A DNA stretch of 64,000 nt, from contig CAWBOS010000015.1 in NCBI GenBank assembly GCA_963790475.1, positions 578,369-642,368 of the forward strand. The letters run 5' to 3'. The notes beneath the pieces were generated by a model, which saw nothing but the letters and a program-made list of their open reading frames with translations, ran no database searches and was not told the DNA's origin. A program made the translations under genes and the position numbers. The stretch comes from an uncultured delta proteobacterium (lineage in GTDB: Bacteria > Desulfobacterota > RBG-13-43-22). This document shows positions 122 to 16,856 of this stretch, one piece after another (within the stretch, counting starts at the first letter, position 1; each line of letters starts with the position of its first letter).

Positions 122-1063
122 ATGGATATTTATTTGCCCATCGCCAGCATGAGCATCAATATCTTTTTGCTCATAGGTCTGGGCGGGTTAGTCGGGTTTT
201 TATCCGGGTTGTTCGGGGTGGGCGGAGGTTTTCTGCTCACACCTCTCCTGATTTTTTCAGGTATCCCCCCTACCGTTGCCGCAGCCAGTGATTCCAATCA
301 GATCGTAGCTGCCGCCTCTTCCGGGGCTTATGCCCACAGCCGCATGGGAAATGTGGATTTGAAAATGGGTATCATCATCCTGGTGGGAGGGATCGTCGGC
401 GGATCTATCGGGGTCCAGATCATCAAGGTCCTTAGGGTCATGGGGAATGTGGACTTTGTTATCAAACTGATTTATGTCATCATGCTGGGGTCCATCGGGT
501 CCTTTATGTTTATTGAAAGCCTCAATGCCTTGAGACGGAGTAAAGTCCAGGTGGGAGAAGACGCCCATCCGCACGAACCGAAAGAATCATCGGTCCGGAA
601 ACTGGCGGCCAAACTCCCTTTGCAGATGCACTTTGAGAAATCCCGCATGTCCACCTCGGCCATTTTCCCTTTTGTTTTAGGGACCGCGGTGGGCATCCTG
701 GCCGCCATCATGGGGGTAGGCGGGGGATTCATTATGGTGCCTTCCATGATTTATATCCTCGGTATGCCGACCATCGTGGCTATCGGGACCGATCTGTTTC
801 AGATCGTGTTGACCTGTATCAACGTCACCGTCCAACAGGCCATCCGAAACCATACGGTGGACCTGATCCTGGTGATCCTTCTCTTTATCGGATCCACGAT
901 CGGGGCTCAAGTCGGAGCGAGGGTCAGCCGGCATTTGCGGGGGGAGCAATTACGTATCCTTCTGGCCGTCATTGTCTTAATCGTCATGGTCAAAATGTTG
1001 ATTGATTTATTGGTGACACCCGATAACCTGATCAGCCTGGCCAGGGGAGGGGGTGGCCACTGA
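122..1063 (+). CDS. TSUP (TauE/SafE, sulfite exporter) family membrane protein
   Basis: Two repeats of the G(L/I)(F/M)GVGGGF motif, about 8 hydrophobic segments, C-terminal GGGGH. Confidence 0.9.
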   Translation: MDIYLPIASMSINIFLLIGLGGLVGFLSGLFGVGGGFLLTPLLIFSGIPPTVAAASDSNQIVAAASSGAYAHSRMGNVDLKMGIIILVGGIVGGSIGVQIIKVLRVMGNVDFVIKLIYVIMLGSIGSFMFIESLNALRRSKVQVGEDAHPHEPKESSVRKLAAKLPLQMHFEKSRMSTSAIFPFVLGTAVGILAAIMGVGGGFIMVPSMIYILGMPTIVAIGTDLFQIVLTCINVTVQQAIRNHTVDLILVILLFIGSTIGAQVGARVSRHLRGEQLRILLAVIVLIVMVKMLIDLLVTPDNLISLARGGGGH

Positions 1064-1935
1064 TGGAACGAAAGGAGGTTCAAGGTTCAAGGTTCAAGGT
1101 TCAAGGTTTTGAAAAATCCAATTCGATGTTTGACGGCGTCCCATTAATAAGAGGACATAAGATGCTGGCTTTTATGGGTATCGTTTTAATAGTCCTCCTG
1201 GTAACCAGTCACTATGGACTGGCAGGGACCCTGAGTTTCCAGCCCGCTTCTTTGGAAAGAACCCTCTTTTCCAAACGGTTCCAGGACCTGACGATCAGCG
1301 GTCCGGTCCCTGAAGGGGCTCAGGTCATTCTCAAAATCATTTCCCCAACGAAGACCTTCAATTTAAACAAGTCCGGTAAAGGGCTGGGATTCGTCTGGCT
1401 GCCCATCAGCCACGCCGAAGTCAAAAAACTTCCCGGCATGGTGGCCCTGCTCAGCTCCAGCAAAATATCGGGAATGCTCTCTCCCGAGCAACAAAAGGCC
1501 AATGGTCTTTCTCCGGATTACCAGGAAATCTATACCCAGGCTGAAATCCATTTTAAAGACCCCCCCAAAGAAGCCGAGGTCGCCGCATTAAAAAAAGAAT
1601 ATATCGCCGGGCTGATTAAAATTATGGAGCAGGGCGGACTTTATCAGGTGAAAGAGGCGGCTGTACAATTATCCGGGAATCAATTTACCGCCCGGATCAA
1701 ACAGCCGGCCGATGCCCCCTTGGGAGAATACCAGGTTTTTTGTTATGCCGTTAAAGAGGGCAACGTTGTTCTCCAGTCACAAGAAAAATTCCAGGTCAAA
1801 CAAATCGGCTTGGCTGAGTGGCTTACCCATCAGGCCGGTTCTAATGCGGTGGTCTATGGATTCATGGCCGCGCTGATAGCTATTGCGGTTGGACTCCTGG
1901 TCGGGTTGGTATTTAAAAAAGGGGGGGGGCACTAA
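1063..1935 (+). CDS. TIGR02186-like protein (signal peptide, periplasmic domain, C-terminal TM); true start probably ATG 1162
   Basis: Follows the TSUP gene; GK-G-VW motif; C-terminal TM then KKGGGH; GAGGA RBS at 1151-1155 before ATG 1162. Confidence 0.7.
   Translation: MERKEVQGSRFKVQGFEKSNSMFDGVPLIRGHKMLAFMGIVLIVLLVTSHYGLAGTLSFQPASLERTLFSKRFQDLTISGPVPEGAQVILKIISPTKTFNLNKSGKGLGFVWLPISHAEVKKLPGMVALLSSSKISGMLSPEQQKANGLSPDYQEIYTQAEIHFKDPPKEAEVAALKKEYIAGLIKIMEQGGLYQVKEAAVQLSGNQFTARIKQPADAPLGEYQVFCYAVKEGNVVLQSQEKFQVKQIGLAEWLTHQAGSNAVVYGFMAALIAIAVGLLVGLVFKKGGGH
1076..1108 (+). repeat. Heptamer tandem repeat (AGGTTCA)x4.7
   Basis: Read directly: aggttca aggttca aggttca aggttca aggtt. Confidence 0.9.
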
Positions 1936-2020
1936 GAGACAGGGAGAAACGGAGACACGGAGAAGCCTTTTCTCCGCCTCCCTCCATCGCCGAGTCTCTT
2001 TTCATCGTGTCTCCCCCTCA
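1936..2020. repeat. Inverted degenerate 8-mer repeat arms (GGAGACAC-like / GTGTCTCC-like) between convergent genes
   Basis: gagacagggagaaacggagacacggaga followed by tctccgcctc...gtgtctcccc. Confidence 0.6.
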
Positions 2021-4647
2021 TTGCGTCGTCTGCTCTCAAAGTCGTTTTCTGATAGAGAAGTTTGTCCATCTTTTTTAAAGGAATAATTCCCGTCCATAAA
2101 GGCCCGGACATACCATTCCACCACCCCATCGCTATACATGACCATGTCCAGTTGCCGGGAACAGCACATCAGGCGGCCCAGGTAATCTAATTTTTCTTCC
2201 GTAACCCGCCCGGTGTATTTCATCAGCTTGGCCATGAGCCAATCCCCCTTCAACTCCACTTCAAAATCCAGGTTTTTCAAAACCCCACTGATAAACCGGG
2301 CCCGCCGCGCCCTGCGTTCGGAGCTGGAGCCTCCGCCCATAAAATGAAAAGTGATATAATTGTTATTTTTGGTTTCTGAGCAATAGGTATCGACCGTGCT
2401 GAAATGATAGGCCAAACGGGAACTAAAATTCATGTAGTTTTTTGAGATCAGGGCATAACTGCGGTCCCCCATGGTCTGGCCATAGCGAGCGGAATCCGAA
2501 AGAGTGTTCAGCATGACCGAGGCAAACCCCTTCAAATCGACTTCCACCATACCGGTCCAGCTCACTCCCGGATGGGTCAATCCCCGCCAGAGGGCCTTCA
2601 TGGGTATGGAGATGATTTCTTCCGGCTGGACATTCTTCCGCGGCCTATTCGATGGGGTCAGACCACCCTCTAGATCAATCATATAGAGATTGATCGGGAT
2701 GTCGGAGATCAATCTCTTGGCTTGCTCTTTTTTAGAGGCTTTTTCCACTTCATTAAACCGGAACATCTCCTGGATGGAAATCTCATGGATGTAGCGGGTG
2801 ATATCATGGAAGGTGCGGCAGTTTTGTGATTGAAAAGATGCATCCCGGGGATCGACTAACTTTAAAGGAACGATGACCGAAAGGACCTCTTCCAGTTTTT
2901 TCAGGATCGCCGTCTGCTTGAGATTGCTTTCCACTTTCCCTTTTTCTTTTTCGATTAATTCCTCAATGACCCCCTGATAGATTTTATTCCTGATGGCATC
3001 CACGGTTACTAATTGCCCTGTTTTAAGCAGTTGGGTGGCTTCCCGGGTATCGACAATGGTCGGGATTTGAAATTCTCTGGCCAGAGAAGCCATATGACCG
3101 GTGACATTCCCGATATCGGTTATGATAGCCGCAGCCCGATTCATGACCGTCACATATTTGGGGGCCGTATGTTTAACGACCAGGACCCCTCCTTCAGGAA
3201 ACTGGATCAGATCCTGATCCTGTCTAACCAGGACCACCGGGCCAGCCCCGATCCCGGGAGAGGCCACCACGCCCCAATCGATCAGGACCTGATCAGGGCC
3301 AATCTCCGGAAGAGCGGTTTCTTCTGCCCCGATCTTCGATGAAGATATTTTCAAGGGACGGGTCTGGAGGAGAAAAAGTTCCCCCGCCTCATCAATAGCC
3401 CATTCAATATCCTGGGGTTTCTGATAGTGGTTTTCCAATTTAAGACCGTATTCAAATAATTGCTGAAGGGTCTCATCATTCAGACAGGGTTTCCCCTGGT
3501 CTTCTTCCGGGACATGGGTTTCCATAACCCCGGCCAATGGATGACTGACCAGCATAACCTCTTGTCTGGGGATCCTTTTTTCCAGAATCCGACCGTTTTC
3601 TTTGGATATGACATAGACATTGGGACTGACCTGACCGCTTACCGCATATTGGCCTAATCCCCAGACGGCGCTGATAATGACCGTGCTTTGAGCAAGGTTG
3701 TTCGGATCCTGGGTATACATAATCCCGCTGGTTCTGGCGGAAATCATGGACAGACACCCCACGCTCATGGCGATGTCTTCCTCGTTAAATCCTTTATCTT
3801 TCCAGTAGAAGATGGCCCGGGGGGTGAACTTACTGGCCACGATTTCCTTATAGGTTTGCAGGAGATTGTCGCGATGGACATTCAGGGCTGTGGCATATTG
3901 CCCGGCAAAAGTCATCTCACTGTCCTCCCCGACCGCGCTGCTTCGGATGGAGATAGGGATTTTCCCCCCGGCCTTGGCCATGAGCTGCTCGTAAGAGTCC
4001 AGTATGGCCTTTTCCAGGGTTGGAGGTATTTTGGCCAGGAGGATGGATTGTTGGATTTTTTTACCGGCCAGGGCAATGGCTTCCAAGTCGCTTCCGTCTA
4101 ATGAATCCAATTGTTTTCGGATTTGCTTTTCCAGGTCGTTTTCCCCGATAAAGATCTTGTAGGCATAGGAGGTGATGGCAAACCCATCGGGAACCGGCAG
4201 CCCGACCCGGTTTCTCATTTCCCCGAGATTGGCATTTTTACCCCCTACCTGGTCCATCATATCCCGGGTGATCTTGTTAAGGGAAAGGGTAAAGGAGGAG
4301 AATGGGATCTCTTTCCTGCCGAAGACCGTTTGTTTAACGGTTTGATCAACTTGGTCAAAAACATCATAAAGGAGGCCGAACCTTTTGGGAGCCATCCGGT
4401 TCAAGGCCTCCACCATTTCGAAGACCCGGTCTCTTAACCGGGCATAACCGGCCCGAATATACTGACGGTCGAATATATATTCCCCGCTGGAATATTTTTC
4501 CTCCATATCCCCCATAACCTCCAGGGCCTCATTGTTGGCTTGAAGAAGGGACTGGAAGGCCCGGAACCTTTCCTGGAGGGAGGGAACCTTCTCCTGGTTC
4601 TTTCTTAAATATCTGTTGCGGGATAGGAAGTTAGAAAAATTTATCAT
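2002..4647 (-). CDS. PEP-synthase/PPDK-like protein (ATP-grasp + phospho-His swivel domain + atypical C-terminal domain), paralog 1
   Basis: VGGKNANLGEM, IRSSAVGED, FAGQY, QDIEWAID, LQTRPL and TGHMASLAREF motifs; no ENPxLGxRG or GxNDL TIM-barrel motif. Confidence 0.85.
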   Translation of the reverse strand: MINFSNFLSRNRYLRKNQEKVPSLQERFRAFQSLLQANNEALEVMGDMEEKYSSGEYIFDRQYIRAGYARLRDRVFEMVEALNRMAPKRFGLLYDVFDQVDQTVKQTVFGRKEIPFSSFTLSLNKITRDMMDQVGGKNANLGEMRNRVGLPVPDGFAITSYAYKIFIGENDLEKQIRKQLDSLDGSDLEAIALAGKKIQQSILLAKIPPTLEKAILDSYEQLMAKAGGKIPISIRSSAVGEDSEMTFAGQYATALNVHRDNLLQTYKEIVASKFTPRAIFYWKDKGFNEEDIAMSVGCLSMISARTSGIMYTQDPNNLAQSTVIISAVWGLGQYAVSGQVSPNVYVISKENGRILEKRIPRQEVMLVSHPLAGVMETHVPEEDQGKPCLNDETLQQLFEYGLKLENHYQKPQDIEWAIDEAGELFLLQTRPLKISSSKIGAEETALPEIGPDQVLIDWGVVASPGIGAGPVVLVRQDQDLIQFPEGGVLVVKHTAPKYVTVMNRAAAIITDIGNVTGHMASLAREFQIPTIVDTREATQLLKTGQLVTVDAIRNKIYQGVIEELIEKEKGKVESNLKQTAILKKLEEVLSVIVPLKLVDPRDASFQSQNCRTFHDITRYIHEISIQEMFRFNEVEKASKKEQAKRLISDIPINLYMIDLEGGLTPSNRPRKNVQPEEIISIPMKALWRGLTHPGVSWTGMVEVDLKGFASVMLNTLSDSARYGQTMGDRSYALISKNYMNFSSRLAYHFSTVDTYCSETKNNNYITFHFMGGGSSSERRARRARFISGVLKNLDFEVELKGDWLMAKLMKYTGRVTEEKLDYLGRLMCCSRQLDMVMYSDGVVEWYVRAFMDGNYSFKKDGQTSLSENDFESRRRNEGETR

Positions 4648-4727
4648 AATTCAATTTATATCTTCTTGGCCGTTGGGAATAATCGCTCGCAGATTTATCA
4701 CTGGAGGATTGATTGTTGGGTTGGATT

Positions 4728-5150
4728 TTATTTCGACCCTGGGTTTAATTGGGCTTTAAGGTTCTTTATTTCCTTTTTCATGGCCTCCCATTCCATAGCC
4801 CGATTGATGGTGATAATGATCTGATCTTTTCGAAAAGGTTTGGTTATATAATCATAAGCCCCTTCGGTAATCGATTCTTCCGCCGATTGAGATGAGCCGT
4901 AAGCGGTTATGACAATGACCGGGATATCCGGATCGATTTTTTTGGTCTCTCGTATCAGATCAATCCCATTCAATCCCGGCATGCGAAGATCGGTGATCAA
5001 CAGGTCGAAAGGCTCCCCCTTCAGCAAAGGGGGGACCTCCAGAGGATTATTGGTGGTCACTACCTGGTGGGGCGTCCTTTCGACAATGATCATCTCTAAC
5101 AGTTCCAGAATATCCGGCTCGTCATCCACAATCAGGATTTTTCCTCCCAT
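4728..5150 (-). CDS. Stand-alone response regulator receiver protein
   Basis: ILIVDDE, TDLRMPG, TAYG, YITKPF; no output domain. Confidence 0.92.
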   Translation of the reverse strand: MGGKILIVDDEPDILELLEMIIVERTPHQVVTTNNPLEVPPLLKGEPFDLLITDLRMPGLNGIDLIRETKKIDPDIPVIVITAYGSSQSAEESITEGAYDYITKPFRKDQIIITINRAMEWEAMKKEIKNLKAQLNPGSK

Positions 5151-5188
5151 AGCATCCCCCTTTTATTTTTATCAAAAAACCTCTGGGG

Positions 5189-5623
5189 CTACCCGGCGGA
5201 ACCCTTTTTAAACTTTTCCAGTTCGGCCTTAAGGGCAATATTCTCTTTTTGAAGCCGTCTCCATTTCATGACTTTTTCAATAGTCAGCAGAATCTGTTCC
5301 TGGCGGAAAGGCTTGGTGATGTAGTCGAAGGCCCCTTTACGCATGGCTTCCACTGCCGACTCGATGGTTCCATAGGCCGTAATAATGATAAAAGGGAGTT
5401 GATCGTCAACCTGTTTGACCATCTCGATCAATTCGATACCGTCGATATCGGGCATCCGAAGGTCGGTAATCATTAAATCAACGGGCTGCTTCTTCAACAA
5501 ATCCGGCACTTCCAGAGGTGAATTGGTGGTGATCACTTCGTATTCCGTCCGATCGGTGATAATCAATTCCAGCAGTTCCAGCATGTCGATTTCATCATCA
5601 ACGATGAGAATCCTTTCAGCCAT
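5189..5623 (-). CDS. Stand-alone response regulator receiver protein
   Basis: ILIVDDE, TDLRMPD, TAYG, YITKPF; only a short coiled tail. Confidence 0.92.
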   Translation of the reverse strand: MAERILIVDDEIDMLELLELIITDRTEYEVITTNSPLEVPDLLKKQPVDLMITDLRMPDIDGIELIEMVKQVDDQLPFIIITAYGTIESAVEAMRKGAFDYITKPFRQEQILLTIEKVMKWRRLQKENIALKAELEKFKKGSAG

Positions 5624-5624
5624 C

Positions 5625-7890
5625 TTACGCTCCCTTCTTTTCCGCTTCCCGTTTGGAGTGATAGACGGGAAGGGTTACCGTAAAGCTGGTCCCATGGTTT
5701 ATCGGGTCCTCTTCTTCGGTTTTGGTTTCCAGATGGATAGTCCCCTGATAATGATTGACGATTCCATAGGTGACGGTCAATCCCAAGCCTGTGCCTTCTC
5801 CCACCTTTTTGGTGGTAAAGAAAGGATCATAGATCTTTTCTCTATGCTCTTTCCTGATGCCCGTTCCGCTGTCGGCAATGACTGACTTCCACCTTATCGG
5901 AATAGATCTGCCAGTGGGATATGACGGTCAGCAGGCCGCCCTTGGGCATGGCGGCGACGGCATTGTTCATTAAATTCAGAAAAACCTGTTGTAATTGGAC
6001 CGGGTCGGCCTTGACCCTGGGCAGGTTCGGTTCCAATTCTTTCTTTAACTGGACTTTTTTAATCATCAAATTGTTTTCGACCACGGCCAAGACTGTTTCC
6101 AAATTGAGATTGATATCGCTGATAGTATCGGAATGTTCGGTGTATCGGGAAAAACTGAGCAGATTTTCAACGACTTTTTTACAGTGATTGCCTTGGCGCT
6201 CTATCTTTTCCAGGACTTTGTGGGTCTTATCATCCGCCGGTATCTTATCCAGCATATAATCACAGTACCCCAGGATAACCCCCAGGGGATTGTTGATCTC
6301 ATGAGCGACACCGGCGGCCAACAGCCCCAGGGAGGCCAGTTTCTCAGTATTGATCATTTGCTTTTCTATATTTTTTTTCTCCGTAATATCCCGGGAGATC
6401 CCCAGCAGGCCCTGAACCTGACCCTCATCATCTTTGATGGCGATCAGTTGGGTGTGCAACCAAACATCATTGGCTCCAATCTTCAGGCTGTGTTCTATGG
6501 TCTTGGGTCGGCCCGTTTGCCAAATCTCATCAAATAACTGCGGGTGAAAAAAGCCGTCGGAGGGGAAAAATTCAACCAGTTTTCTGCCGATAAAATTTTC
6601 CGATTGTTCTTCATAGGGGAGCTTAGAGCCTTTTTCTGATTCAGGATTGACCAGTGCCCCTCTCAGAAAAATGGCCCCATACTGATTCAACGATATAAAT
6701 CTTCCCTCCCGGTCGGCAGAGAAAATGATATCCTGGGCCCCTTCCACCAATTTTTTATACCGCTCTTCCGAGTGTTGCAGGTCTTTGGTCTTGTTCTCCA
6801 CTTCGGTTTTCAGGGTCTTGGTGTATTGCCATTCGAACCCGATGATCGTCAGACTCCCCAGGATGATGGCGAAGATGATGAACCCCTGCATAATAAATTG
6901 CCAGAGATAGGGCCTGTGAATCACCTCATCGATTTCCGTGGCCGGGGCTACCACAGCCACTGCCCAATTAACCGATGGAGAAGTTCCATGAAGGCGGACC
7001 GGGGCATAGGCGATCAATTTGTTGATATTTCCCCGCTCCCCGCGGTGCCATCCCGAAACATACCAGGAGGTGCCCTGCTGGCCGGCGAGCATCTTTTCCT
7101 TCTGTATTCGATTGATCTGATCAAAAGAGATCTTGGCCGCCCGCTGGCCCCTGACGGCAAAGGCATTTTTTCCGATAAATTCCGGAACCGGGTGATAAAT
7201 AAAATTCCCATCATCATCAATGGCCCAGGCATAGCCGGTTTTTCCGGAGCGGATGTCCTTGAGCATCTGGGTTACAAAATATTCCTTATCGAGCGTGAGA
7301 TATAAATAACCGGCATACTGAAAACTGGAAATCGGATGGGCATCATCGACCGCTTCCAGATAAGTCGGAATAACGATTTTCATGACCGGCCTGACCGCAG
7401 TACCGTTTTGTTTGTAGGCCGGTATCAGGGATACTCTGTTTTTATTTTCCAGTCTTTTAGACCAAAGAAAAGGGTCCCGGTCGGCTTCAGAAACGGAGGC
7501 CATGCGAATTTCCTGTTTATCCGTAACCACAAAGAGGGATTTACCGGAAGAGGAGACCCGTCCGATCTCCAGCACCCCGGTTTCTTGCATGGTGGATAAG
7601 GTGATTTTTATCCGGTTGGCCCAGGAGACCTTCTCCAGATATTGCACGGAAGGGGATTGGTTCAGCATTTTCAGCTCTTGAATGATATTGGAAAATTTGT
7701 TTTCAAGCTGACGGGCCGCATGGGTCGCCAGTTCCAACTGCTGCTGATTGAACTGATCACCGACGATCTCTTTCATATACCGGAGCGAATAAAACCCGAC
7801 GATCAGACCGGCGATCAATAAGGAGACCGTAAATATCCCGATACCCAGAATGAATTTTTTTGTTTTGATGAACATGAAAAACCTTTCCAA
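5625..7890 (-). CDS. Cache/PAS sensor histidine kinase, interrupted by a single +1 frameshift near 5882
   Basis: Two TMs, periplasmic Cache-like region, PAS, AHEINNPL H-box and N-box in the 5842-7890 ORF; DSGTGI, DPFFTTK and GTGLGL boxes continue in the next frame to TAA 5627-5625. Confidence 0.88.
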
Positions 7891-7918
7891 AGATAATGTA
7901 CGAGTTGCGAGTTACAGG

Positions 7919-8051
7919 TGATGAACTCGCAAAAAGTCACCGAAGCCCGCATTAGTCATTCCGGCGAAAGCCGGAATCCAGTGATTTTAAGTAGTTTTAA
8001 TCTCCTGGACCCCGGCTTTCGCCGGGGTGACGACTTTTTGCGAATCCATCA
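7919..8051. mobile_element. MITE-like element, family A (20-bp TIRs enclosing two REP-like GAAA hairpins), 4-bp TSD CAGG
   Basis: TGATGAACTCGCAAAAAGTC ... GACTTTTTGCGAATCCATCA; CAGG at 7915-7918 and 8052-8055. Confidence 0.8.
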
Positions 8052-8121
8052 CAGGTTACGGGTTAAGGACAATCCGCCTATATTCTTAAAACCCGCAACT
8101 CGCAACTCGCAGCCTTCGTTA

Positions 8122-10683
8122 TTATCTTTTAAATTCATAATTCCCGGACAGGAAGGCCTCCGCATGCCAGGCTACCATATTTTCGTCGGCCATGGTCATA
8201 TCGGTTTGCCTGGCACACCCCATCAAACGGCCCAAATCTTCAAGTTTTTCTTCGGTCATCGGCTCCGGATATTTTCGATAATCGGCCTTGACCAGATCTT
8301 CCTTGACCATGACCTCAAAACCCAATTCTTCCAACACGATCCCCAGAAACCGGGCCCGTCTGCCGCGCCTCAGGATATCCGCCGCCCCCCCCTTGAACAC
8401 AAAGGTAATGTAATTGTTATTGCGAATCTTTCCGCAAAAGGAATCCACGGTGGCAAAATGATATCCTAACCGGGAGCTGAAGTTAAGATAATTCAAAGAA
8501 ACGAGGGCCAGGGTCCGGTCCCAAAAATCATCGGAAGGCTGGGTGGCCGATTGGGCCATGACCGAGAGCAACCCTTTAACGTCCAAACCTATTGGCCCGG
8601 CCCAGCGGATTCCAGGCCAAGTGATCCCTTTCCACAGGGCCATGAAAGGCACGGAGATGACATTTTCCGGCGGTAGAACACGATGACCCCCGGCCTTTTT
8701 AATTCCACCCCCCAAATCCAAAAGATGGAGATTGAGGGGCAAAGAAGTCTTGATTCGAATGGGAAATATCTTATGAAGGTCTTCCCTCTCGGAGAGCTTG
8801 AACATTTCTTCAATACTTTTTTCATGGGCAAAACGGATAATATCATGAAAAGTCTGGCAAGATCGGGGGTTGAAATTCTCGAGTTTGGGGTCTACCAGAT
8901 TTAAGGGAACAATATAACGGATGATCTCCTGAAGCCGTTCATAGACCGGGGTATTTAAGAAAAGAGGGTTCTCTTTGGATAATTCCTTTAAAAGAGGCTC
9001 TACGCAGCCGGCATAAACTCGGGCATTGAAAGTATCCACCGTCACCTCCTGCCCGGTTTCCAAACAGGCCGTGGCCTTCCCGGTGTCCACCAGAGTAGGG
9101 ACTCGAAATTCACGAGCCAGGATGGCCATATGACCGGTGGCACTCCCTATGTCGGTGACGATGGCCGCAGCCTTATCCATAACCGAGACAAACCGGGAGG
9201 AAGTGTGGGGCGCTACCAGGACTGCCCCTTTGGGAAAATCAGTCAAGTCCTCGTTGGGCCTGATCTTAAAGACCGGCCCGGCCCCAATACCGAAGGCCCC
9301 GACCGTCCCTCCTTCCAGGAGAATCGGATATTCCTGCGAGATCCGCTCGAGGATTTTTTTCTTTTCTATTTTCTCGTAGGCTCTTAAATTCCGCGTTTGA
9401 AGGACAAACAGATGGTCTTCCGGGTCAAGGGTCCACTCCACGTCTTGAGGATGGCCGAAATGGGTTTCCAACAAACAAGCCCATTTCCACAGGGTGTTCA
9501 GCTGGTCCGGATTCAAACAAGGGCTCTCCTGAATGGGTTCAGGGACGGCTTCCTCCTGCAGTCCCCCCCCTGGGACGGCGATTAACTGTTTGGGTTTTCG
9601 AGGAATTTTTTGCCCTTTAATCTCGCCGGTCTTTTTGTAGAGCAAATACAGGTCCGGGCTGGCCATCCCGTCCACTACCCATTTCCCCAACCCCCACAAG
9701 GCATTGATCAGGACCACCTCTCCGTATTCAGGATCTACGTGGCTGGTGAACAGGACGCCGCTGGCCTTGGCCGGGATCAAATTCTGACAGGCGACGGCCA
9801 TGGCCATTTCCTCTTCCAGAAGGCCTTTACTCTTCATATAGAAAAGAGACCGGGCGTTAAATTGGCTGGCGACAATTTCCTTATATTTATCGGGGACCTC
9901 TTGAGGAGTAATATTTAAAAATGTGGCATACTGACCGGCAAAACTGAAATGAGTATCTTCAAGAAGGGCACTGCTTCGCAAGGCCAGTCCCCGCCCATGG
10001 TTTCCTTCGGCCTGAATTTTAGTGGCGGAATCCACCAGGATTTTTTCCATATCCGGAGGAATCCTGGCTTGAAGGATCAGGCTCTTAATGGCTTCTCCCG
10101 TCTCTTGAAGGGTTTTTTGATCGATGATAGAGGAATGGTTAAGCAGGGAGACGATCCCGTCCTGAAGGTTATTATGGGATAAAAAATGAATATATCCAAA
10201 CGTAGTTACGGCAAAGCCTTCCGGGGTGGGGAGACCCAAGACATTTTTTACCTCCCCCAAATGGGCATTTTTCCCTCCGGTCTGGTGAAAAGAGTCAACC
10301 GTAACCCGGTTCAGGTTGATGGTGAAATCGGTCCGGGGAATCTCTTTTTTTTTCTCCAGGGCCTTTTGAACCTCAAGATGGATCCGTTGATGAATTTCCT
10401 TCAGCTCTTCATAACGATTAGGGCTGATATTGATAAGATAGGCAACAATGAGTCCCACTTTTTCCGCAATGCGACTGGCGGTGGACCGAAGGTAACTCAT
10501 ATCAAAGAGGAAGTGCCCTCCCTGTTTTTCCTCCAAGTCGGCCATCAATTCCAGTGTTTCATTATTTTCTTTGAGCAGTTCAGTAAAATATCCGAAGATC
10601 TTTTCTAAGGATTCTGACCCCTTGGGATTTTTGAGTTGATCTTCCTTCCTAAAAAGACGGAAAAAATTCATTTTTATCTGCAA
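8122..10683 (-). CDS. PEP-synthase/PPDK-like protein, paralog 2
   Basis: GGKNAHLGE, LRSSALLED, FAGQY, QDVEWT and TGHMAILAREF motifs; same atypical C-terminal domain (NFSSRLGYHF). Confidence 0.85.
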   Translation of the reverse strand: MQIKMNFFRLFRKEDQLKNPKGSESLEKIFGYFTELLKENNETLELMADLEEKQGGHFLFDMSYLRSTASRIAEKVGLIVAYLINISPNRYEELKEIHQRIHLEVQKALEKKKEIPRTDFTINLNRVTVDSFHQTGGKNAHLGEVKNVLGLPTPEGFAVTTFGYIHFLSHNNLQDGIVSLLNHSSIIDQKTLQETGEAIKSLILQARIPPDMEKILVDSATKIQAEGNHGRGLALRSSALLEDTHFSFAGQYATFLNITPQEVPDKYKEIVASQFNARSLFYMKSKGLLEEEMAMAVACQNLIPAKASGVLFTSHVDPEYGEVVLINALWGLGKWVVDGMASPDLYLLYKKTGEIKGQKIPRKPKQLIAVPGGGLQEEAVPEPIQESPCLNPDQLNTLWKWACLLETHFGHPQDVEWTLDPEDHLFVLQTRNLRAYEKIEKKKILERISQEYPILLEGGTVGAFGIGAGPVFKIRPNEDLTDFPKGAVLVAPHTSSRFVSVMDKAAAIVTDIGSATGHMAILAREFRVPTLVDTGKATACLETGQEVTVDTFNARVYAGCVEPLLKELSKENPLFLNTPVYERLQEIIRYIVPLNLVDPKLENFNPRSCQTFHDIIRFAHEKSIEEMFKLSEREDLHKIFPIRIKTSLPLNLHLLDLGGGIKKAGGHRVLPPENVISVPFMALWKGITWPGIRWAGPIGLDVKGLLSVMAQSATQPSDDFWDRTLALVSLNYLNFSSRLGYHFATVDSFCGKIRNNNYITFVFKGGAADILRRGRRARFLGIVLEELGFEVMVKEDLVKADYRKYPEPMTEEKLEDLGRLMGCARQTDMTMADENMVAWHAEAFLSGNYEFKR

Positions 10684-11003
10684 ACCGAAAAAGTTTTAAT
10701 TTTCCGGGCATTATAAAAAGCCAGGAAGAAAATAGCAAGAATTGTATGCTGATCGAATAAGAACGATTCGATTTTAGCGACCATCTTCTACCACACATTT
10801 TCCCTTTCATTCTTCCCCCTTTTAAATTAATATCGGTAGTCTTCAATAAAAGGAATTAGACGGAAACGGTGTTCGGCTGCCGATGGCCTATAAAATTTTG
10901 ATTATTAGAAAGGCCATTGTTTATTAATTCTTGGATATTAGTTTCGCATGCCACCTGGAGGTGAGAAATTCAATTAGGTGAGGTCCTGCCTCTTTACAGC
11001 ATA

Positions 11004-12323
11004 GTGCCCTTCCTGGGTCTGTTGTTATCTATAGCCTTATGTCCTCTTTTCCTGACCAAATTCTGGCATGACCATTTTGGTAAGGTTGCCGCCTTTTGGG
11101 CAGCCCTGACCGCTGTTCCCATTATCATTGCCTATCAGGGCCTGGCCGTAAATCAATTTATCCATGTCTTAGTGGTAGATTATATTCCCTTCATCATACT
11201 TCTTTGGTCCCTTTATACGGTATCGGGCGGAATTGTCATCCACGGCAATCTGATGGGGACCCCCCTCACCAATACCATGATCCTTCTTTCAGGAACAGTC
11301 CTGGCCTCCTGGATAGGCACCACCGGAGCCTCCCTGCTTTTGATCCGTTTTTTTCTGAAGTCCAATAAGCATCGCCGGAACAAGGGCTTCATGGTTGTTT
11401 TTTTTATATTTCTGGTAGCCAATATAGGGGGGGGCTTGACGCCTTTGGGAGATCCCCCCTTGTTCCTTGGATTCCTTCATGGGGTCCCCTTTACCTGGAC
11501 CTTCCGCCTATTTCCCCAGATACTTTTTTTGGTGATTGTCCTGCTGACCATTTACTTTTGTCTGGATCATTATTTTTATAGGAAAGAAACCCATCAATTA
11601 ACAAAAGGGAAATCGGCTTCTCAGCGGCTTGGCGTTAAGGGTTCGTACAATTTGATCTTTCTGGCCGGGGTTATCGGATCGGTCATACTGAGCGGCTGCC
11701 TTGACCTGGGGGCAGTCCATTTCTGGGGTGTCTCCTTCCGGATCATAGACTGGACACGCGACGGTCTGCTGATTCTCATGGGTCTATTTTCCTTACTGAC
11801 CACTCCGCGAATTTTCCGGGAGGAAAACGAATTTACCTGGGCCCCCATCCTGGAAGTGGGTTATATCTTTTTTGGATTATTTATTGCCATGGCCCCCTGT
11901 CTTCTTATTTTAAAGGCCGGGGATAAAGGGGCCCTGGCCTTTGTCACCTCCTCCCTCAAGACCCCGGCCCATTATTTCTGGGCCTCGGGAACCCTGTCGA
12001 GTTTTCTGGATAACGCCCCCACTTACCTGTCTTTTTTAAGCTCGGCCCTGGGCAGCTTTTACCCGGCCATGCCGGAGTCCCTATCCGTACCAAGACTGAT
12101 CAGTGAAAATGCCGCTTTTCTGAAGGCCATATCCTGCGGTGCCGTTTTTATGGGTGCCAACACCTACATTGGAAACGCCCCTAATTTTATGGTACGATCG
12201 ATTGCCGAGGAAGCCGGTGTCCCTATGCCCAATTTTATCACCTATATTTTAAAATATTCCCTGCCCATCCTCTGCCCTCTTTTCCTGATCATGACCTTTA
12301 TTTTTTTCAGGAGGATCCCGTGA
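11004..12323 (+). CDS. Putative Na+/H+ antiporter (IT/NhaD-like family); 5' end uncertain
   Basis: ANIGGGLTPLGDPPLFLG, SSFLDNAPTY and GANTYIGNAPNF motifs; multi-TM. Confidence 0.82.
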   Translation: MPFLGLLLSIALCPLFLTKFWHDHFGKVAAFWAALTAVPIIIAYQGLAVNQFIHVLVVDYIPFIILLWSLYTVSGGIVIHGNLMGTPLTNTMILLSGTVLASWIGTTGASLLLIRFFLKSNKHRRNKGFMVVFFIFLVANIGGGLTPLGDPPLFLGFLHGVPFTWTFRLFPQILFLVIVLLTIYFCLDHYFYRKETHQLTKGKSASQRLGVKGSYNLIFLAGVIGSVILSGCLDLGAVHFWGVSFRIIDWTRDGLLILMGLFSLLTTPRIFREENEFTWAPILEVGYIFFGLFIAMAPCLLILKAGDKGALAFVTSSLKTPAHYFWASGTLSSFLDNAPTYLSFLSSALGSFYPAMPESLSVPRLISENAAFLKAISCGAVFMGANTYIGNAPNFMVRSIAEEAGVPMPNFITYILKYSLPILCPLFLIMTFIFFRRIP

Positions 12324-13210
12324 AACCTTTCAAGGTCTTGTTCGCGACTAAGTTCGGAGAATCGGCCTTTGATTCCTTAGTTTCTCTCTTACCTTTAAAA
12401 AAGGTGGGGCTGGGAGAGATCATCCTGACCCATATCATTCCTCGGGACGAAGTGGCCTACGTTCCTTATGGGGGATACATGAAAGACGAGGAAGAACGAT
12501 TACGGGAAGAGGCGAGAATTCGTTTTGAAGACTGGGAGAAAACCATCTCCCGGGCAGGGATTAAAAGTAAAATTCATATTGAGGTCGGTAACCCGATACC
12601 GAAGATCGTGGAAATCGCCGAGATGGAAAAATGCAAATTGATTGCGGCCGGTCACAAAAAGCGGACCACCCTGGGAAAAATTATTATCGGTTCCCATACC
12701 CTTGAGCTGCTGCGTTGGAGCAAAGTTATTCCGATACTCATAAACAAACCCCCGATCGAATGTGATCCGGGCGGTCAGGGGATCTTGCAACAAAACGATC
12801 ATCCTTTCCGCAGACCCTTGTTGGCCACCGACTGGTCTAAACTAGCAAACAAATCTCTGCGTTTTATAGCCTCTTTTAAAGATGCGATTGACCGGGTGGA
12901 CGTCGTTCATGTGATTGGGAGCAAGATATCAAAAGGTGTAAGCAGGACGGAATTGAAACGTTTGGAAAGAGAAAGCAAGGAGAGACTTGCGGCTTACGCT
13001 GCCTACCTGCGAAACACCGGGATCGAGGCCGAGACCCACTTGGCTGCCGGAAGAACGGAAGAAGAAATTCTCCGGCTTTCGAGTGAACTGAAATCAACCA
13101 TGATCATCATTGGCACGACCGGGAAAGACCGCATAGGCGATTTTTTTCTCGGGAGCGTTTCCCACCGCATAGCCGAACTATCCGACCGCCCCACCCTCTT
13201 GATTCCATAG
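12320..13210 (+). CDS. Universal stress protein with two USP domains
   Basis: LLATDWS, IIIGTTG..FFLGSVS..I motifs; translationally coupled by GTGA overlap. Confidence 0.88.
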   Translation: MKPFKVLFATKFGESAFDSLVSLLPLKKVGLGEIILTHIIPRDEVAYVPYGGYMKDEEERLREEARIRFEDWEKTISRAGIKSKIHIEVGNPIPKIVEIAEMEKCKLIAAGHKKRTTLGKIIIGSHTLELLRWSKVIPILINKPPIECDPGGQGILQQNDHPFRRPLLATDWSKLANKSLRFIASFKDAIDRVDVVHVIGSKISKGVSRTELKRLERESKERLAAYAAYLRNTGIEAETHLAAGRTEEEILRLSSELKSTMIIIGTTGKDRIGDFFLGSVSHRIAELSDRPTLLIP

Positions 13211-13458: not shown

Positions 13459-14260
13459 CAGGGGCTGCTCTTATCCGGGGCCTTGGCCTATTATACCCTG
13501 TTGTCGATCGTGCCCCTGTCCATCCTATCCTTAATCGTTCTGTCCCATTTCATCGAAGAGGCCCAGCTATTCCAAATGTTATCGACTTATATCGGGATGG
13601 TCATTCCCGGCTATGCCGCGACTTTGAATGACCAGGTTCGGATATTTCTTGAGAATCGGAAAGTGGTCGGCATCGTCGGGTTCCTGGTCATGTTGTTTTT
13701 TAGCTCCACCGCCTTTACCGTGCCCGAAAGGGCTATGTGGGTGATCTTTCTTCACCGGGTCAGGGTTCCCCGCCGCTCTTTCTTGGTCTCTTTTATTATG
13801 TCTATATCTTTCAATGGGCCTGGGCCTCCTGATGGTTTCTTTTATCGCTGGAATCTTGGAGACCCTGGAAAAAGCGGAATTCCTGATTGTTGGATGGACC
13901 TTAAGTATTGAAGGCACCTCCAGGCTGGCCTTGTCGATTCTGGGGATCATCGGTGAAGTCTTTATGCTCACATCCATCTATCTGGTTATGCCCCTGGTGC
14001 GCGTAACCCCCCGACACGCCCTGATGGGCGGGATAACAGCTACGGGTTTATGGGAAATCACCCGCCGGATCCTGGTCTGGTATTATTCGGTCCTTTCCAT
14101 GGTCAATTTGATTTATGGTTCCCTGGCCACGGCCGTGGTGGCGCTTCTGAGCATAGAGGCTTTGGCGATCATCCTTTTGTTGGGAGCCCAGGTCATCGCC
14201 GAACTTGAACCTAAACCCGACGATTCAGCCGATGAGAACGGCTCCGGATTTAAACCCTGA
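13459..14260 (+). pseudogene. YihY/BrkB family membrane protein remnant (5' truncated, frameshifted near 13800)
   Basis: QGLLLSGALAYYTLLSIVP directly after an in-frame TGA (13450-13452); second frame carries YGSLA...LLLGAQ. Confidence 0.7.
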
Positions 14261-15881: not shown

Positions 15882-16856
15882 ATGGGTGGTTTTTACTGGC
15901 TCTTTCCGGTCTCAGGGGTAAAGACCTTTTTTTTTATCCCGCCTTTAGTGGCCTTCGTTGTTTCTTTTTTCACTTCCATGGGCGGTGTTTCCGGGGCCTT
16001 TCTGCTCTTGCCTTTTCAAGTCAGTTTTTTAAATTTTACCACCCCGGCCGTCAGTGCCACGAATTTTGTTTATAACATCGTCGCTATCCCCAGCGGGGTC
16101 TATCGTTACCTCAAAGAAGGCCGCATGGCCTGGCCTTTGACCTGGGTGGTTATTGCCGGGACTTTGCCCGGGGTCTTTATCGGCTACTATCTGCGGGTTC
16201 TTTATCTTCCCGATCCCAAGGCTTTCAAATTTTTTGTCGGCGTCGTTTTACTCTATCTGGGCCTCCGTTTATTATATGAAATGACCTCCCGATCTCAAAA
16301 AGGGAAAAGGGGACTGAAGGTCCTGGAAGATAAATTTGATCGGCGCGCCAAAGAACTTAGGGAAAATCAGGCCGGGCTCACGACCTCCGCCCTGCCGGCC
16401 GAAGCAGTAGTAAAAACGGTCCGCTTTTCTCTTTCCCGGGTGGAATATGAGTTCTGGGGGGAACGGTTTTCTTTCAGCACCGCGGCCATGTTTTTCTTGG
16501 CCTGCGTGGTTGGGGTGATCGGCGGGACCTACGGCATCGGGGGCGGGGCCATCATCGCCCCATTTTGCGTGACCATATTTCATTTGCCGGTTCATACGGT
16601 TGCCGGGGCCGCCCTGCTGGGAACTTTTTTGACCTCCATTGCCGGGGTCTTTTTCTACAGCATCATCCCGGCCAAAGCGGGAATGGCCACGGCCCCGGAC
16701 TGGCTTTTGGGTTTTCTCTTCGGGGCCGGCGGCTTTGCCGGGATGTATCTGGGTGCCCGAACTCAAAAATATGTCCCGCAAAAATTCATCAAAATGATGC
16801 TGGGTCTTATCATCACCTCCTTGGCCCTGGGCTACATCATCCAATATTTTTATTGA
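15882..16856 (+). CDS. TSUP (TauE/SafE) family membrane protein
   Basis: MGGVSGAFLLLP and YGIGGGAIIAP repeats; multi-TM. Confidence 0.85.
   Translation: MGGFYWLFPVSGVKTFFFIPPLVAFVVSFFTSMGGVSGAFLLLPFQVSFLNFTTPAVSATNFVYNIVAIPSGVYRYLKEGRMAWPLTWVVIAGTLPGVFIGYYLRVLYLPDPKAFKFFVGVVLLYLGLRLLYEMTSRSQKGKRGLKVLEDKFDRRAKELRENQAGLTTSALPAEAVVKTVRFSLSRVEYEFWGERFSFSTAAMFFLACVVGVIGGTYGIGGGAIIAPFCVTIFHLPVHTVAGAALLGTFLTSIAGVFFYSIIPAKAGMATAPDWLLGFLFGAGGFAGMYLGARTQKYVPQKFIKMMLGLIITSLALGYIIQYFY

Follow-up and report, generated by a model that had tools for sequence, protein, structure and literature searches.

Two phosphoenolpyruvate synthase-like proteins in a conserved gene cluster with two-component and permease genes: a putative transport-control module

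Among the closest described counterparts of the genes analyzed here is the 'nitrate cluster' of Desulfovibrio (DVU0251-DVU0245 / Dde_0597-Dde_0605; Korte et al. 2014, PMC4001038). According to that paper, the cluster comprises genes for a TauE permease, a hypothetical protein, a PtxB-like protein, a kinase, a receiver-only protein, a protein with PPDK_N and mobile domains, and a dual-specificity (DSP) phosphatase. Transposon mutants of the permease, the receiver and the PPDK_N protein grow equally with or without 100 mM nitrate, and in two species mutants of the same three genes resist nitrate. In DvH, by contrast, the mutant of the phosphatase is still inhibited by nitrate, with a fitness of -6.04. 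The authors propose leaky thiosulfate uptake, and the text describes phenotypes, but no mechanism. Here we describe a related cluster in a window of 64,000 nucleotides (the whole stretch of DNA analyzed; contig CAWBOS010000015.1, positions 578,369 to 642,368) from an uncultured delta proteobacterium. Five co-directional genes on the minus strand, at 2002-10683 of the window, encode a phosphoenolpyruvate (PEP) synthase-like protein (PPS-like A), a sensor histidine kinase with a Cache domain, two receiver-only response regulators and a second PEP synthase-like protein (PPS-like B). The open reading frame (ORF) listing and translation bear out the order and coordinates given in the initial annotation, which had been made from the sequence alone.

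The cluster and its domains are confirmed. The PPS-like enzymes, together with the sensor kinase, the receivers and an adjoining pair of membrane proteins, probably form an anion-uptake switch. On balance, we favour regarding the five genes as one half of a conserved transport-control module, namely its regulated enzymes, with the TauE permease and the TIGR02186 membrane protein encoded at 122-1935 as the second half. The PPS-like proteins would then be a predicted ATP-driven His-phosphotransferase that switches the permease and is tuned by the two-component system. The core of the module would be the PPS-like enzyme with the permease, and the two-component system an input that some clades lack. 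The initial annotation had recognized the link to two-component genes, but had overlooked both the membrane protein pair and the published genetics (PMC4001038).

Like the window, the nitrate cluster brings together a TauE permease, a sensor kinase, a receiver-only regulator and a protein with PPDK_N and mobile domains; unlike the window, it has a single PPS-like gene and a single receiver, and it additionally encodes a PtxB-like binding protein and the DSP phosphatase. One locus in our set (L126 of genome G066) has the order and domains of the nitrate cluster, three of its gene lengths match published ones (588, 360 and 1110 bp), and its PPS-like gene matches the profile of the C-terminal domain described below (E 4.6e-66). 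On this evidence, the published nitrate cluster belongs to the same family. In contrast to the window, the nitrate cluster contains neither TIGR02186 nor the Gly-Gly-His tails discussed below.

Domains of the PPS-like proteins and receivers

PPS-like A and B are 43% identical from end to end. In B, a three-helix extension (residues 1-118) is followed by the ATP-grasp domain (119-440), the swivel domain (455-575) with the phosphate-carrying His518, and the C-terminal domain (C-domain, 576-860). As initially annotated, both proteins retain the ATP-grasp (PPDK_N, PF01326; E 5e-99 and 3e-81) and the phospho-His (TGH) swivel domain (PEP-utilizers mobile domain, PF00391; E 1e-20 and 3e-20); for residues 1-120 and 575-860, Pfam finds nothing. 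Across 69 sequences, neither the swivel His nor the ATP-grasp residues vary. The N-terminal extension of about 120 residues, predicted to be helical, comprises three helices (24-54, 61-85 and 92-109) in an AF2 model of full-length B with a pLDDT of 85.1. Residues 115-560 align to rifampin phosphotransferase (Rph; Z 41.2) and to PEP synthase 2ols (Z 39.9), and the alignment with structures of PEP synthase and pyruvate phosphate dikinase (PPDK) is confined to residues 115-588, none extending further.

Against the NCBIfam models of PEP synthase, TIGR01418 and NF005057, PPS-like B scores 412 (cut-off 598) and 401.6 (cut-off 739.75); the scores of A, 334.8 and 322.7, are also under the cut-offs. 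These matches end at profile position 477 of 798. The Rph model (NF041857) gives a score of 230 against a cut-off of 999. We rejected the possibility that these are bona fide PEP synthases, given the missing TIM barrel and the scores below the curated cut-offs. The genome contains one more PPS-like ORF, without C-domain (C10:1619514-1621610).

The replacement of the pyruvate-binding TIM barrel by a distinct domain shared by both proteins, a central point of the initial annotation, is borne out: PEP-utilizers_C (PF02896) has no match at E <= 0.01 and the model is not a beta-alpha barrel. The C-domain, about 285 residues long, was modelled with AF2 from a 73-sequence alignment (pLDDT 83.2, pTM 0.72) and has an alpha+beta fold with helices and antiparallel strands. 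The motifs CxTFHDIxR, NFSSRLxYHF and FxGG..RRxRRARF, noted earlier, are present in both proteins and contain residues that are invariant among 55 to 73 aligned relatives. In 55 sequences, 24 columns are invariant, with His, Asp, Arg or Tyr at many of these positions. In the numbering of B, the invariant residues are H614, D615, R618, H621, Y747, H748, N763, G771, G772, R782, D802 and D834; in C-domain numbering, they include H40, D41, R44, H47, Y173, H174, N189, R208, D228 and D260. The family signature consists of PPDK_N, the mobile His domain and a C-domain with HDxxRxxHE, YHF, NNY, GG and R/D, and both window proteins fit it.

A Foldseek search of the PDB with the C-domain, a check suggested at the outset, gave no match at E <= 1e-3, the top match having an E of 1.7e-2. 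Searching 48,161 chains with VIA-align, the top Z was 5.7 (coproporphyrinogen oxidase), within the stated noise range of the tool; three chains reached Z >= 5 and none Z >= 8. We take these three to share a common arrangement with the C-domain, rather than being kin. Matches in the ESM Atlas are to the family's own unnamed clusters only (0.88-0.91).

The two receivers are output-less, as annotated: Pfam finds a receiver only, and both keep D9, D10, the acceptor D54, T82 and K104, which are invariant in 36 sequences. For the receiver at 4728-5150, the best NCBIfam rows are NosR-family, NtrX, AtoC and NtrC receivers.

Distribution and gene neighbourhood

Searching 1.84 billion proteins with a C-domain profile at E <= 1e-3 yielded 1555 cluster representatives, 793 of them at E <= 1e-30; most are about 850 residues long, with the domain at approximately 570-850. 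A word-based search with residues 575-860 returned 167 proteins at E <= 1e-3 out of 1759 candidates, and among the 120 matches listed, all carry just the two N-terminal Pfam domains. Species-representative genomes contain 576 stretches coding for the C-domain. The best 80 of these matches provided a set of 76 loci, the record titles of which name Thermodesulfobacteriota, Syntrophorhabdales, Desulfobaccales, Desulfarculaceae, Nitrospira, Acidobacteriota, Ignavibacteria, Planctomycetales, Abyssobacteria and Poribacteria. The genome of the window encodes nine PPS-like copies; the C-domain is found in 12 of 20 relatives, with 3 to 13 matches apiece, and in 58 of the 81 genomes sampled from one family of Desulfovibrionales (sulfate reducers). 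A search of the literature found no paper on the C-domain, the His tails or the mechanism, nor one joining TauE, water dikinase, sulfurylase and cytidylate kinase; none of the matches listed was due to TIGR02186 or its Pfam family, and searching by gene number led to the 2014 paper only.

A search for fused forms of 1543-4405 residues found none. We rejected the long ORFs in L061 and L067 as over-extended ORF calls with low-complexity N-termini. One protein of 1248 residues (P0246) has a low-molecular-weight phosphotyrosine phosphatase (LMWPc) domain fused at its N-terminus, and four others (P0195, P0232, P0266 and P0267) have about 200 additional C-terminal residues without a clear family.

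Neighbourhoods were counted over the 76 loci as genes within 5 kb of a PPS-like gene; in L058, the PPS-like ORF itself dropped out during ORF calling. Two-component genes are present in 46 loci, in agreement with the link proposed initially, with a small receiver in 40 and a kinase in 33. TauE is present in 32 loci, TIGR02186 in 26 and either of them in 35; 57 loci have at least one of the four. At least two PPS-like genes are found together in 28. The C-domain is not a TIM barrel and the homologues are tied to two-component genes, so in both respects the description of a non-canonical enzyme associated with signalling genes holds.

In the window's own genome, the surroundings of the nine PPS-like genes, taken as 5 kb to either side, make up 1.4% of the DNA, but contain seven of nine TauE and both TIGR02186 genes, together with 10 of the 53 small receivers and 6 of the 44 kinases. 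The PPS-like link to TauE and TIGR02186 is tighter than that to receivers and kinases. A receiver or TauE gene is near eight of the nine paralogues. All nine relatives (of 20) that bear TIGR02186 also have the C-domain, and none of the eight relatives without C-domain has TIGR02186. Two proteins of 1125-1128 residues, in L009 and L010, are fusions of TIGR02186 with a PPS-like protein, as identified by Pfam.

The order PPS-like, Cache kinase, receiver(s), PPS-like is repeated in many loci of several lineages, and is not due to chance. In a tree of 95 full-length PPS-like members, those of the PPS-like A clade are always followed by a Cache kinase, one or more receivers and a second PPS-like gene, and those of the PPS-like B clade, like those of a sister clade that lacks two-component genes, invariably face a TIGR02186-TauE pair. 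Convergence of the TauE gene with PPS-like B, as in the window, recurs in L002-L005. Whole clades, for example L007-L014, have no two-component genes nearby, which makes the two-component relay look like an added input, rather than part of the core. The interpretation given in the initial annotation is thus supported in part.

Pfam was run on 123 proteins, 119 of them encoded by flanking genes in 21 loci without two-component genes, the other four being long PPS-like ORFs; TauE, Alph_Pro_TM, Cytidylate_kin2 (with BON) and ATP sulfurylase are confirmed as neighbours. ATP sulfurylase (Sat) genes lie beside relatives in 9 of the 76 loci. Cytidylate_kin2, often with a BON domain, adjoins PPS-like/TauE modules in 14 loci (examples are L128 1219-2055 and 14476-15987, L008, L013, L032, L050 and L064), and is next to ATP sulfurylase in loci of Syntrophorhabdales and Acidobacteriota.

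Features of the window, with positions counted from its first nucleotide
Feature	Position	Strand	Evidence
TauE/SafE (TSUP) family permease, 313 aa, end ...ARGGGGH	122..1063	+	Pfam TauE E 2e-48
TIGR02186 / Alph_Pro_TM membrane protein, 290 aa, tail ...FKKGGGH	1063..1935	+	Pfam PF09608 E 4e-39
PPS-like B, 881 aa	2002..4647	-	Pfam, NCBIfam, models, structure alignment
C-terminal domain of PPS-like B (residues 576-860)	2068..2922	-	without Pfam family, without clear solved fold
Receiver-only response regulator, 140 aa, short C-terminal helix	4728..5150	-	Pfam Response_reg E 7e-28
Receiver-only response regulator, 144 aa	5189..5623	-	Pfam Response_reg E 1e-29, alignment A4
Sensor histidine kinase: TM, dCache_1, TM, PAS, HisKA, HATPase_c; two frames	5625..7890	-	Pfam, frame analysis
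PPS-like A, 853 aa, four-part build as in B	8122..10683	-	Pfam, NCBIfam, alignment
Top sigma-70-like promoter match of the region, 10/12, just 5' of PPS-like A	10710..10738	-	consensus match only
CitMHS_2 family permease	11004-12323	+	Pfam
Tandem universal stress protein	12320-13210	+	Pfam
Second TauE family permease, without His tail	15882..16856	+	Pfam, tail reading

The cluster is contained in a super-locus of about 35 kb, with four PPS-like genes, five receivers, four kinases, five TauE, two TIGR02186 and two Cytidylate_kin2 genes. That no DNA-binding regulator is present, as noted initially, is true for the five genes; however, an NtrC-type sigma-54 activator (REC-AAA-HTH_8), with a HAMP kinase in divergent orientation, is encoded immediately ahead of the window, next to the TauE gene at 122 (G000:C15:575273-578282, equivalent to L128 16774-19783). 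A matching pair of a kinase and a receiver with output domain is also present in L002, and the pair may provide transcriptional control of the locus. The sigma-54 promoter pattern has 17 matches against 22.5 expected, none of them within the cluster, and sigma-70-like consensus matches number 16 against 12.4 expected. The first ATG of PPS-like A is five codons into the frame. The genes for the CitMHS_2 permease and the universal stress protein are divergent from PPS-like A; CitMHS_2 also adjoins PPS-like genes in L003 and L046.

A putative anion-uptake switch and its alternatives

Judging from the conserved chassis and residues, the ATP-grasp domain of each PPS-like protein would charge the swivel His with phosphate from ATP, and the swivel domain would bring this phosphate to the C-domain, where an invariant polar site takes the place of the pyruvate site. 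Action of the PPS-like protein would be required for the permease to work; the nitrate resistance of Desulfovibrio upon loss of permease, receiver or PPS-like protein shows this in part. When the phosphatase is lost, the effect is reversed in one of these species; a phosphatase may oppose the switch. Phosphatases recur in the family: Metallophos genes adjoin PPS-like tandems in L032, L033 and L048, and P0246 has its fused LMWPc domain. The Cache kinase would sense a ligand outside the cell and phosphorylate both receivers, which in turn may tune the PPS-like enzymes by binding. Candidate acceptors for the phosphate are a small molecule, the receivers, or His tails of the membrane proteins. Thiosulfate or sulfate is our leading guess for the transported anion, from the remark of the Desulfovibrio authors and the ATP sulfurylase genes beside relatives.

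The principal alternative is a metabolic dikinase, in which the C-domain phosphorylates a small molecule imported by TauE, or derived from the import (ATP + X + H2O -> AMP + Pi + X-P), and the two-component system sets only expression or activity. The invariant polar residues resemble an active site, and swapping of the acceptor domain on this chassis is a known pattern among solved relatives, with rifampin phosphotransferase and phenylphosphate synthase working in this way. Sat and the P-loop kinase-like Cytidylate_kin2 next to relatives would also suit metabolism, and losing a step after uptake could likewise alter nitrate sensitivity. On the other hand, nine paralogues in one genome, with a permease or receiver of their own, suit regulators better; the fusion to a membrane protein and the protein-type phosphatase partners point to a protein or membrane-bound target; and, according to PMC4001038, the Desulfovibrio strains do not metabolise nitrate. 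We consider a metabolic dikinase possible, but unlikely.

Both membrane proteins encoded at 122-1935 end in GGGH. The TIGR02186 protein consists of an N-terminal anchor, an outer domain of about 200 residues and a C-terminal transmembrane helix, with hydropathy segments at 26-59 and 258-289. A G(x)H end is found in 22 of the 26 TauE genes directly upstream of TIGR02186, and a terminal His in 25 of the 31 TIGR02186 genes; elsewhere, such an ending occurs in 3 of the 34 remaining TauE genes and in 26 of 959 genes of other kinds. These loci were chosen via the PPS-like gene, and the tie between tail and neighbour is a correlation. Of the 12,070 ORFs of the window's genome, seven end so, and four of the seven are the two TauE-TIGR02186 pairs. 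Across loci, the His tail is specific to TauE-TIGR02186 pairs. All four tails of two Desulfovibrionaceae pairs end in His, and none of the six tails of three alphaproteobacterial pairs does; at the two alphaproteobacterial pairs that are annotated, no PPS-like gene is annotated within 5 kb. The TauE genes adjacent to the fusion genes of L009 and L010 lack the tail. The only other sizeable ORF of the genome with a GGH end encodes 339 residues (G000:C13:134621-135640). In three Acidobacteriota loci (L050, L064 and L072), TIGR02186 has a long acidic C-terminal extension with a His-rich end (...ETTHHG, ...ETTHRD and ...DTVHHV), not GGH.

These observations suggest, very tentatively, an ATP-fuelled counterpart of the sugar phosphotransferase system, in which the C-domain would pass phosphate to the terminal His of the cytoplasmic TauE and TIGR02186 tails, gating or energising anion uptake, with phosphatases resetting and receivers tuning the system; we give this specific form of the switch a low probability.

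Less probable still is the relay put forward in the initial annotation, in which the His-phosphate of the PPS-like proteins feeds the receiver Asp or takes phosphate back, as a non-canonical input or output, possibly with A and B as a heterodimer. Receivers do occur directly beside PPS-like genes without a near kinase (for example in L020, L021, L054, L067 and G000:C15:379184-382269), those of the Cache kinase loci form a close subfamily travelling with PPS-like genes (E 1e-40 to 1e-85, against about 1e-15 for others), and the second PPS-like gene following every member of the PPS-like A clade would suit a heterodimer. However, clades without a nearby receiver retain every invariant C-domain residue, and the receivers have a normal partner kinase within the operon. 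A complex prediction of residues 1-860 of PPS-like B with residues 1-135 of the receiver at 4728-5150 (alignments A3 and A4), run without controls, gave a score of 0.00, which carries no weight for or against contact.

Glucan water dikinase is paralleled with a DSP phosphatase in starch metabolism. A comparable polymer dikinase, paired with a dual-specificity phosphatase and acting on a glycan or other polymer, could account for the DSP phosphatase of the Desulfovibrio cluster and for the subtype beside two GlgC-like nucleotidyltransferase genes (L022, L024, L029, L038, L039 and L056), but Pfam finds no carbohydrate-binding module in the PPS-like proteins and the window genes sit with permeases, not glycan genes. 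We consider it highly improbable.

Several observations weigh against the anion-uptake switch. In 19 of the 76 loci, neither two-component genes nor TauE or TIGR02186 are present within 5 kb. One PPS-like subtype (L022, L024, L029, L030, L038, L039, L040 and L056) is without two-component and TauE genes and lies beside one or two GlgC-like nucleotidyltransferase genes per locus; an outer-membrane efflux protein is encoded in most of these loci, and in some there are two proteins with a 'Gate' domain as well as Metallophos_2. In PMC4001038, the phosphatase mutant of G20 has a positive fitness, unlike that of DvH, and pooled and single-mutant results are at odds for two genes. The locus set leans to close relatives, since it stems from the best 80 of 576 matches; the neighbourhood genes are plain ORFs labelled roughly, by single-sequence phmmer against the window's own proteins; and the tree, calculated with FastTree, is midpoint rooted and was read without support values.

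The frame of the window's sensor kinase is also broken: HisKA is found with an E of 6e-15, and HATPase_c resumes in another frame at 5625-5927 (E 3e-14). Compared to the orthologues in L002 and L003, there is one surplus base at 5883/5884. Contigs of relatives that are 95-97% alike, from two public runs, are also without this base, and the sole contig with a likeness of at least 99% begins at 5895, past the frameshift site. The gene for a BrkB/YihY-like membrane protein at 13483-14260 is likewise split, into overlapping frames at 13483-13911 and 13814-14260; this second frameshift, within 8 kb of the first, hints at an indel-prone assembly. An assembly error in the kinase gene is therefore as likely as a true pseudogene.

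Comparison with known phosphotransferases

PEP synthase (PpsA) and PPDK have the same order of ATP-grasp followed by swivel His domain, with 30-34% identity between the window protein and solved chains over residues 118-575. Unlike PpsA and PPDK, the window proteins are without the TIM barrel for PEP or pyruvate; they have the alpha+beta domain instead, plus the three-helix N-terminal extension. Rifampin phosphotransferase, the best structural match over residues 115-559, also combines the chassis with a non-pyruvate acceptor domain. In Rph, however, this domain is placed between the ATP-grasp and a C-terminal His domain, whereas in the window proteins the new domain comes after the His domain (455-575 of 881). 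Other dikinases with a swapped acceptor domain are HpeHI, PigC/RedH and phenylphosphate synthase, of which HpeHI was compared through PDB entry 9goj only. The PPS-like family is a widespread branch of the ATP-grasp/swivel-His chassis without a name or a Pfam model of its acceptor domain, and it has ties to TSUP permeases and to output-less receivers, a class for which targets are seldom easy to identify. For the nitrate resistance of sulfate reducers, without a mechanism in searchable papers since 2014, the proposed module supplies a testable explanation.

Enzyme I of the phosphotransferase system has a homologous swivel His domain (Z 13 over residues 453-576) and is likewise a cytoplasmic His-phosphotransferase working with a membrane transporter, the functional likeness being our proposal. 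Enzyme I obtains its phosphate from PEP via a TIM barrel and hands it on to HPr, whereas the window proteins are predicted to use ATP as the donor, via the ATP-grasp domain. The window system is without HPr and EII, and its PPS-like proteins do not match PF02896. If the tails were indeed phosphorylated, the module would be a second, ATP-fuelled form of His-phosphate transport control beside the PEP-fuelled phosphotransferase system.

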